Of a stretch of DNA of 6,032 bases, positions 1,394 through 1,728 are shown piece after piece. Each line of letters opens with the position of its first letter. The first letter of the stretch is position 1. Under the pieces are notes generated by a model. It did no database searches and was not told the origin of the DNA. It was given only the letters and a program-made list of their open reading frames with translations. The stretch lies in the sequence record OR845271.1, one strand, 5' to 3'. The stretch is from Escherichia phage ECO95 1-6-1. Made by a program: the position numbers and the translations under genes.

Positions 1394-1570
1394 CTAATTT
1401 GGTTTGTACCGCTCTTTGCCTGTGCCATTGCAGGACGAGCATTTCGGACTACCGTTGTGGTCGTAATAACCACTGCCGTTACACGCCGTGCAGGGACGCA
1501 GCTTCCAGCCAAAAACGAAACGTTGGTAATATTCGGTTCGACGAACTTTGCGTTCGTGGAAGTTACACAT
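1394..1570 (-). CDS. Small DnaJ-type zinc-finger protein (58 aa; two CxxCxGxG motifs)
   Basis: Hand translation from ATG 1570..1568 to TAG 1396..1394 gives MCNFHERKVRRTEYYQRFVFGWKLRPCTACNGSGYYDHNGSPKCSSCNGTGKERYKPN. Motifs CTACNGSG and CSSCNGTG match the DnaJ cysteine-rich repeat CxxCxGxG. Shine-Dalgarno GAGGGGG lies upstream. It is in a different frame from track ORF 1354..1575 and below the track size cutoff. Confidence 0.6.
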   Translation of the reverse strand: MCNFHERKVRRTEYYQRFVFGWKLRPCTACNGSGYYDHNGSPKCSSCNGTGKERYKPN

Positions 1571-1599
1571 CTCACCCCCTCTCTATACGCAGCGCCTGT

Positions 1600-1728
1600 T
1601 TATCGATGTTGCTCATTGGGCTGGCCCTCGCATTTGTGATTTTCTGGATCATCGGCTTTGAAATAACCGCCGCAGATTTTGCAGGGTATCGTCGGCACTT
1701 CGTCGTAATTTGAGGTTCCCGTAATCAT
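1600..1728 (-). CDS. Small Cys-containing protein (42 aa; CxxC ... HxC)
   Basis: Hand translation gives [42 protein letters not shown]. Strong Shine-Dalgarno AAGGAG 7 nt before the ATG. The ATG (1728..1726) overlaps the TGA (1727..1725) of the upstream gene as ATGA. Not in the ORF track because of its size. Confidence 0.45.
   Translation of the reverse strand: MITGTSNYDEVPTIPCKICGGYFKADDPENHKCEGQPNEQHR

Follow-up and report, generated by a model that had tools for sequence, protein, structure and literature searches.

We analysed 6,032 nucleotides (nt) of Escherichia phage ECO95 1-6-1 (record OR845271.1; this whole stretch is hereafter called the window), where two short minus-strand open reading frames (ORFs) encode cysteine-rich proteins. 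ORF A (1394..1570, -) specifies a product of 58 amino acids (aa), MCNFHERKVRRTEYYQRFVFGWKLRPCTACNGSGYYDHNGSPKCSSCNGTGKERYKPN, with two CxxCxGxG motifs (C27TACNGSG and C44SSCNGTG). ORF B (1600..1728, -) specifies 42 aa carrying the pairs C16KIC19 and H31KC33. Both frames had been proposed in an initial annotation made from the letters alone, and both were read directly at these positions. They were absent from the ORF track used at that stage, as had been stated; this reflects the length cut-off of the track, and both are listed when the minimum is set to 30 aa (ORF B as a 53-aa form).

The initial annotation had credited both ORFs with good ribosome-binding sites, which the calculated duplex energies bear out. 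The Shine-Dalgarno sequence of ORF A, AGGGGGTGA (1572..1580, -), ends 1 nt before the ATG, with its GGGGG core 4 nt before it, and pairs with the anti-Shine-Dalgarno sequence at -12.4 kcal/mol; it overlaps the stop codon of a 14-codon remnant ORF described below. ORF B is preceded by AAGGAG (1736..1741, -), located 7 nt before its ATG (-8.2 kcal/mol). Among the 217 ATGs of the window, the mean value was -2.5 kcal/mol, and 3.7% were at or below -8 kcal/mol.

The ATG of ORF B (1728..1726) and the TGA of the upstream EaE-like gene (1727..1725) share an ATGA stop/start overlap at 1725..1728 (-), as had been claimed. The description of the two small ORFs as translationally coupled therefore holds for the EaE-like gene and ORF B. 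It does not hold for ORF B and ORF A, where a 29-nt spacer (1571..1599) separates the stop of the former from the start of the latter, and the pair is not directly coupled.

Conservation of ORF A

ORF A matched PHROG 12902 with an E value of 1.6e-38 (131.8 bits), residues 2-58 aligning with profile positions 1-57 of 61. It is a full-length member of this family, which includes ORF179c of phage RB43 and gp12 of Yersinia phage vB_YenM_56.17, and we observed no structural difference from it. A word-indexed protein search with ORF A returned 188 clusters at 90% identity; the best 120 of these 188 share 60-83% of their residues with the query, have a common N-terminus and, with few exceptions, are 56-100 aa long. 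An exhaustive profile search extended the family to 295 clusters at 50% identity with E<=1e-10.

We compared the DNA of the window with 16 homologous loci, giving 17 sequences in all. These loci include Salmonella phage F1055, the T4-like phages RB43 and KP15, the P2-like Yersinia phage and a Vibrio siphophage; 11 of the 16 are bacterial genomes or metagenome-assembled genomes (MAGs) from Gamma-, Beta- and Alphaproteobacteria, Bacillota and a cyanobacterial bin. Among the six reading frames, that of ORF A alone was stop-free in 17 of 17 sequences. Relative to the window, the proportion of synonymous differences (pS) in these loci was 0.66-1.0, which is saturated, and that of nonsynonymous differences (pN) was 0.20-0.36. 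The mean non-consensus fractions at codon positions 1, 2 and 3 were 0.24, 0.21 and 0.51, respectively. The pattern is that of a frame under strong purifying selection.

Conservation of ORF B

ORF B matched PHROG 25957 over its full length (residues 1-42; E 6.4e-36), and is 100% identical to residues 1-42 of P22 orf45 (gp31, YP_063723.1). Its range is much narrower than that of ORF A: the matches form 9 clusters at 90% identity, and the 44 phage records with a homolog are all from Salmonella or Klebsiella. For comparison we used the homologs of two E. coli chromosomes and six Klebsiella temperate phages (loci L004, L005 and L023-L028), which are 37-39 aa long. In the 34 codons of the conserved core (residues 1-34), variable columns numbered 9, 7 and 28 at codon positions 1, 2 and 3, and pairwise omega (the ratio of nonsynonymous to synonymous substitution rates) was 0.06-0.29. 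C16, C19, H31 and C33 hardly vary, if at all, among the homologs.

The ATGA overlap with the upstream stop is present in every ORF B homolog, and most also overlap the downstream start in this way at their 3' end. At the ORF B start, it is kept in 9 other contexts with differing upstream genes, which are mutually unrelated (EaE-like, DUF4752, methyltransferase). An alternative start of ORF B at the in-frame ATG at 1761, giving the 53-aa form, was rejected: the PHROG alignment and all homologs begin at MITGT with the ATGA overlap.

The tail beyond the core, GQPNEQHR, is encoded by DNA of the downstream gene's start region. P22 and the window have one nucleotide less ahead of the downstream ATG, which puts the ancestral TGA out of frame; reading of ORF B therefore continues for a few codons within that region, and this accounts for the variable tails. 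P22 Orf45 likewise overlaps eaE through ATGA and lies upstream of a gene start of the MSNIDK type; it has 45 aa (ending in QTQ) as against the 42 aa of ORF B (stop codon TAA), because the downstream sequence diverges after a shared linker. The E. coli and Klebsiella forms stop sooner, after 37-38 aa, within the second ATGA overlap.

In the Klebsiella phages the gene cluster with ORF B lies downstream of replication genes, outside the PL region. In Klebsiella phage ST16-OXA48phi5.1 (locus L026, 1501-1701), the CxxC...HxC module is duplicated in tandem and in frame, giving a 66-aa product.

Shadow frames and public annotations

Two longer plus-strand ORFs, 1307..1639 (110 aa) and 1312..1713 (133 aa), together spanning 1307..1713 (+), cover the same DNA as antisense frames a1 and a3 of ORF A, and a minus-strand alternative frame lies at 1354..1575 (73 aa). 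If these frames were real and ORF A and ORF B artefacts, their greater length would be accounted for, as would two public records that annotate frames of this type. In phage F1055, F1055_0030 (L002, 2549-3076) extends the 1354..1575 frame to an out-of-frame 175-aa 'hypothetical protein' with a GTG start, and the conserved gene is missed; in Klebsiella phage KP15, KP15_140 (L020, 2241-2582) is an antisense ORF across the ORF A homolog, where a gene of 58-64 aa is missed.

The conservation, however, argues otherwise. Although the window itself keeps both plus-strand ORFs open, stops interrupt each of them in 8-10 of 15 divergent ORF A homologs; the 1354..1575 frame is likewise broken, and stops occur in 7-10 of the 15 for each of the three shadow frames. 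Among the divergent ORF B homologs, none is free of stops in either alternative sense frame. The shadow frames matched no family in Pfam or PHROG. On the plus-strand ORFs, the variable sites would land at codon position 1, an inverted pattern, whereas the substitution pattern tracks the ORF A and ORF B frames. We consider the chance that the shadow frames are the real genes to be close to nil, and ORF A and ORF B are both almost certainly genuine. The initial annotation had suspected the plus-strand ORFs to be artefacts and had proposed comparing synonymous with nonsynonymous change; the comparison favoured ORF A and ORF B, and conservation in favour of 1307..1639 or 1312..1713 was not found. 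The F1055 and KP15 calls appear to be misannotations.

Neither gene is new, since both exact sequences are already deposited and ORF B is P22 orf45; both are in the databases as hypothetical proteins. The exact ORF A sequence is on at least 998 contigs in NCBI (e.g. AVB05302.1), under the names 'chaperone protein DnaJ', 'Molecular chaperone DnaJ' and 'hypothetical protein', and that of ORF B is on at least 1000 contigs as 'MULTISPECIES: hypothetical protein [Salmonella]'.

Predicted structures and nearest known proteins

ORF A has an isoelectric point (pI) of 9.5, with 11 Lys and Arg against 4 Asp and Glu. An AlphaFold2 model (mean predicted local distance difference test score, pLDDT, 87.9) has a helix at 4-19, a strand at 23-26, two zinc knuckles and a strand at 52-55. 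ORF A has only four conserved cysteines, so that a single Cys4 site is the sole possibility; we infer that C27, C30, C44 and C47 would bind one Zn2+. The conserved non-ligand residues are R7, K8, R11, G21, W22, K23, R25, Y36, D37, S41, P42, K52, E53 and Y55. In the model, R7, K8, R11, W22, K23, R25, Y36, K52 and Y55 would form an exposed conserved basic and aromatic surface.

Searches of ORF A against Pfam, NCBIfam and PADLOC gave only sub-threshold matches to the cysteine-rich (CR) domain of DnaJ and to anti-TRAP, and a family-profile search of PDB sequences gave nothing significant (anti-TRAP 3lcz, E 0.49). In a Foldseek search with the zinc-free model, the top match, not a significant one, was anti-TRAP 3ld0 (32 columns, root-mean-square deviation 1.9 A, 31% identity, probability 0.96), followed by DnaJ CR domains; matches in BFVD were many small DnaJ-CR-like phage proteins, all uncharacterised.

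Anti-TRAP (RtpA/YczA of Bacillus; 3ld0/3lcz) is comparable in size (53 aa, against 58 for ORF A) and, like it, has two CxxCxGxG motifs side by side; in anti-TRAP, their four cysteines hold a single zinc. Anti-TRAP blocks TRAP by binding, without catalysis. The loop between the motifs, from G to C, is 9 residues in ORF A and 6 in anti-TRAP, and ORF A missed the cut-offs of the anti-TRAP families (PF15777, 14.3 against 32 bits; NF058604, 16.1 against 65 bits). To our knowledge, enteric hosts lack TRAP, so the target of ORF A must differ from that of anti-TRAP.

ORF A had been described as DnaJ-type. This is correct for the motif, which ORF A shares with the DnaJ CR domain (PF00684, 1exk) together with the 9-residue spacing of DnaJ motifs 1-2, but the protein is not a DnaJ. 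It has no J domain (Pfam, NCBIfam), no G/F region and no C-terminal client-binding domains. DnaJ has four CxxCxGxG motifs forming two interleaved zinc centres; ORF A has two motifs, and hence would have one zinc centre instead of two. PF00684 scored 26 bits on ORF A against a gathering threshold of 32.7 (E 1.1e-5), and TIGR02349 scored 25.1 bits against a cut-off of 377.2 (E 1.1e-5), covering DnaJ positions 144-174 alone. ORF A probably has the zinc-ribbon architecture of anti-TRAP while belonging to neither the anti-TRAP nor the DnaJ family, and the names 'DnaJ chaperone' and 'heat shock protein' in use for its family are over-annotations.

ORF B is acidic, with a core pI of about 4. Its model places beta-strands at residues 13-15 and 22-24, has a short helical turn over 28-30 and reaches a pLDDT of 84-85 in the core; it suggests a minimal C2HC finger, made up of a beta-hairpin knuckle and a short helix. 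No significant match was found in Pfam, NCBIfam, PADLOC or PDB sequences.

Distribution of the ORF A family

Homologs with 71-82% identity to ORF A occur in about 180 phage records, mostly T4-like myoviruses of Klebsiella, Enterobacter, Citrobacter and Cronobacter; the T4-like carriers include RB43 (ORF179c), RB16 and KP15. Beyond the T4-like phages, homologs were found in a P2-like Yersinia phage and a Vibrio siphophage. Genomes and MAGs of several phyla carry homologs with 56-69% identity, as do a Pseudomonas megaplasmid and the contigs of very large phage-like elements. The setting differs between carriers: ORF A lies in a P22-like 'ea' region, whereas the PHROG 12902 members lie in the hyperplastic early regions of T4-like phages and the early operon of a P2-like phage. 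In a Serratia prophage the homolog lies between recombination genes and the integrase, as in the window.

In Yersinia phage vB_YenM_56.17 (L021, 3001-3231), the homolog, a 76-aa protein labelled 'heat shock protein', overlaps the start of the replication nickase gpA by 4 nt, which suggests that it is co-translated with the replication protein. Ten longer members of the family (131-170 aa) have C-terminal extensions without an informative Pfam domain.

An all-against-all comparison of same-strand ORFs within 3.5 kb at 19 loci revealed no conserved neighbour of ORF A, a GmrSD_N-like ORF excepted. This ORF (GmrSD_N/DUF262-like, about 170 aa) lies at most about 1.5 kb from the ORF A homologs in four loci, too few for linkage: a Salmonella prophage (L035, 2087-2602), RB43 (L019, 1384-1920), KP15 (L020, 732-1313) and a gammaproteobacterial MAG (L012, 5586-6170). 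Two of the four, RB43 and KP15, are related T4-like phages.

Mosaic junction between ORF B and ORF A

A remnant ORF of 14 codons, MSNIDKQALRIERG followed by a stop (1572..1616, -), preserves the 5' part of an ead/Ea22/eaF-type gene. The remnant begins, with an ATG, inside the final part of ORF B. A single nucleotide separates its TGA, which is part of the ORF A Shine-Dalgarno sequence, from the ORF A ATG. Translation of ORF A may gain from ribosomes terminating on the remnant at this position. The Shine-Dalgarno sequence also includes a G5 tract (1575..1579). In Salmonella variants with other G-tract lengths, the remnant is fused in frame to ORF A, giving products of 73-74 aa (P0276, P0282); these variants could be sequencing noise or a true length polymorphism.

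Across the start of the remnant lies a 23-bp linker, CCCAATGAGCAACATCGATAAAC (1598..1620, -; also given as CCCAATGAGCAACATCRAYAAAC), which is common to the starts of eaF, eaD and ead-like genes and codes for the N-terminus MSNI(D/N)K of ead/Ea22/eaF-type genes. It had 0 matches in 200 shuffles. P22 has the linker twice, at the eaF and eaD starts, where a record from the 1990s annotates a 26-bp repeat. It is also present twice in F1055 (L002, 2148-2170 and 2504-2526) and twice in a Salmonella chromosome, and once each in phage Oslo and an E. coli prophage; the copies at locus L001 are at 2628-2650 and 2984-3006.

DNA shared between the window and F1055, as well as many Salmonella chromosomes, is confined to 1344..1623 (-). 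This mosaic module of about 280 bp contains ORF A and is 98.6% identical to its counterparts in F1055 and the Salmonella chromosomes. The linker marks a mosaic junction, the left edge of the ORF A module. The commoner context of ORF A is after a DUF5448/EaF-like gene, without ORF B. The gene downstream of ORF B homologs belonged to the mosaic ead/Ea22 superfamily in 10 of 10 contexts. These comparisons show ORF A and ORF B to be independent mosaic modules, neighbours by chance in the window. ORF B is normally followed at once by an ead/Ea22-type gene, and both its start and its stop take part in ATGA overlaps. As the downstream gene is always of this superfamily, we take ORF B and an ead-type gene to be the ancestral pair. 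In the window, recombination at the linker swapped the ead body for the ORF A module, leaving the 14 codons behind. Mosaicism of this sort, joined at gene boundaries, is commonplace among lambdoid phages.

Proposed role of ORF A and alternatives

The identity of 56-82% across P22-like, P2-like and T4-like phages and several bacterial phyla points to a binder of a conserved target. As no gene neighbour is conserved, ORF A probably works alone. A small, stand-alone, early-expressed and highly conserved protein found in unrelated phage types is suggestive of a non-enzymatic binder. The initial annotation had remarked that small zinc-finger proteins in phage early regions often modulate host proteins, a role that ORF A and ORF B may conceivably share. 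We propose tentatively that ORF A would bind a highly conserved host macromolecule stoichiometrically, early in infection or upon induction, in a mode that may be likened to the blocking of TRAP by anti-TRAP; this mechanism, taken by itself, is somewhat less than an even bet. For the account as a whole, namely a PL operon with two real genes, brought together as mosaic modules, one of which encodes a putative binder, we estimate a probability of about 0.5.

Several observations weigh against this account. Searches of the literature on phage CXXCXGXG or DnaJ-like fingers, on P22 eaE, eaF and orf45, and on anti-TRAP found no study of a function or target for either family. The zinc site of ORF A is read from the motifs alone, and its fold match to anti-TRAP has a Foldseek E value of 0.33. 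The helix of anti-TRAP is C-terminal and mediates trimerisation, whereas the only predicted helix of ORF A is N-terminal. The ORF B model has an overall pLDDT of 71, built from 9 sequences, and is of moderate confidence; the best matches in its fold search, Sgf11 and the RAD18 ubiquitin-binding zinc finger (UBZ), had E>3 and were not significant. The original P22 GenBank record lists orf-45 without an identified protein product. The basic, aromatic-rich surface of ORF A is at least as suited to contacts with nucleic acid as to contacts with protein.

The last point leads to the possibility that ORF A is a nucleic-acid-binding zinc ribbon, either a replication or recombination accessory or an RNA-binding regulator, with no inhibition of a host protein. 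The protein is strongly basic (net charge about +7) with conserved Arg/Lys and Trp/Tyr, and its homologs often lie among DNA-metabolism genes: in Serratia and Salmonella prophages they follow genes for a Rad52-type recombinase, a single-stranded DNA-binding protein (SSB) and an exonuclease, in the P2-like Yersinia phage the gpA start is overlapped, and in the Vibrio phage the homolog is two genes upstream of the DNA ligase gene. The nearest published item is the partial DnaJ domain with two motifs that is embedded in the DNA polymerase of HMO-2011-type marine phages (PMC9038755). The surface and these neighbourhoods make a nucleic-acid role nearly as likely as binding to a host macromolecule. 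The neighbours are not conserved, however, and DNA-metabolism genes abound in early regions regardless. The weak profile matches of ORF A to the zinc-ribbon ribosomal protein L32 (E 0.6-0.9) are not significant, and no known nucleic-acid-binding family was matched in Pfam, NCBIfam or PDB. On balance, we regard this role as unlikely but worth serious consideration.

We find it improbable that ORF A mimics the DnaJ zinc centre and modulates the host DnaK/DnaJ/GrpE system as a competitor for DnaK or its clients, or as a small holdase. The DnaJ CR domain is the only family-level similarity of ORF A (PF00684 and TIGR02349), with CxxCxGxG-x9-CxxCxGxG spaced as motifs 1 and 2 of E. coli DnaJ in the 1exk alignment. 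Several phages need DnaK/DnaJ for replication, and the conservation of DnaK would suffice to account for both the wide host range and the high conservation of the family. Against this, both scores fell under the curated cut-offs (26 against 32.7 bits and 25 against 377 bits), ORF A lacks a J domain and would have one zinc site where DnaJ has two, and its conserved ERK..R, GWKLR, YD..SP and KERY segments, outside the knuckles, have no DnaJ counterpart.

For ORF B, the alternative is that it makes no functional protein and is a spacer, translated or not, through which ribosomes leaving the EaE-like gene are passed on to the ead-type gene that follows. This would fit its position, always wedged between two genes by ATGA overlaps, a C-terminus that changes with the downstream context, the lack of an identified product in the P22 record, and the failure of the Prokaryotic Genome Annotation Pipeline (PGAP) to annotate it in some E. 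coli genomes. A spacer would not be expected to show purifying selection over residues 1-34 (variation at 28 of the 34 third positions, as opposed to 9 first and 7 second positions), nearly invariant C16, C19, H31 and C33, a module duplicated in frame in a Klebsiella phage, or retention of its sequence beside unrelated upstream genes, and we consider this explanation very improbable. Since the P22 record reports no product, the comparative evidence for coding by orf45 is a useful, modest addition.

Extending the proposal that ORF A is a binder of a conserved host macromolecule, its family might represent a widespread, unrecognised phage host-takeover factor of 6-7 kDa with DnaJ-type knuckles and one zinc, binding one universal bacterial machine, while the ORF B finger would partner the downstream ead/Ea22-type protein. 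This extension is doubtful. If true, the candidate machines would be DnaK, the ribosome or a replication/recombination protein, and the identity of 56-82% in temperate as well as virulent phages would be due to an invariant target surface. The family is unusually conserved over very different phages, and is therefore a reasonable candidate for target identification. The value of the present results lies mostly in annotation: two ORFs of less than 60 aa in the P22-like 'ea' region are confirmed as genes, and wrong public calls are flagged. For a lambdoid early region, nothing here is surprising.

Genomic setting

By megablast, the window is 99.7-100% identical over its whole length to Salmonella phage S.Kent 1-2-1, an unannotated record, and has patchy matches of 90-95% to the P22-like phages g341c, epsilon34, ST64T, L, ES18 and S135/S137. 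Its gene order agrees with the P22 map, and every substantial gene except one is on the minus strand. Gene content and order show the window to be the delayed-early leftward PL ('ea') operon of a P22-like Salmonella prophage; the initial placement of the small genes in a phage early region was thus well founded.

In transcription order, the operon starts with an N-like antiterminator (5594..5956, -), followed by a DUF7666/pentapeptide protein (4251..4910, -), CIII (3911..4051, -), a gene at the Arf position (3620..3820, -), a Rad52/22-type annealing protein (recombinase; 2904..3611, -), a helix-turn-helix (HTH) protein (2620..2904, -) and the anti-RecBCD protein Abc2 (2280..2573, -). The eighth gene, at the position of P22 orf56, encodes a DUF2737 protein and was listed as a 73-aa ORF with a GTG start (2099..2320, -). 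The DUF2737/PHROG 1117 profile aligns from residue 18 of this ORF, at the P22 orf56 position, and the gene is probably the 56-aa form starting from the ATG at 2269. The EaE-like gene (1725..2102, -; 125 aa), directly upstream of ORF B, comes next, then ORF B and ORF A, a DUF4014 small membrane protein (1124..1342, -; 72 aa) downstream of ORF A, and an EaA-type protein (407..1120, -), which is the last. A promoter and terminator scan of 1000..2400 gave nothing above chance.

The sole convincing plus-strand gene (5090..5593, +; 167 aa) runs opposite to the PL operon and adjoins the N-like gene. Its product matches PHROG 1244 (unknown function), is helical in its N-terminal part and bears a CxxC...CxxC pair in its C-terminal part. 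A weak PADLOC match of this product to Cas10 (E 7e-4) is probably spurious. The gene is possibly a moron or a lysogen-expressed gene. Within the DUF7666 gene, a 27-bp tandem repeat (4459..4559; 3.7 copies, 94% matches) codes for the iterated peptide SAATNTG(N/D)(R/W).

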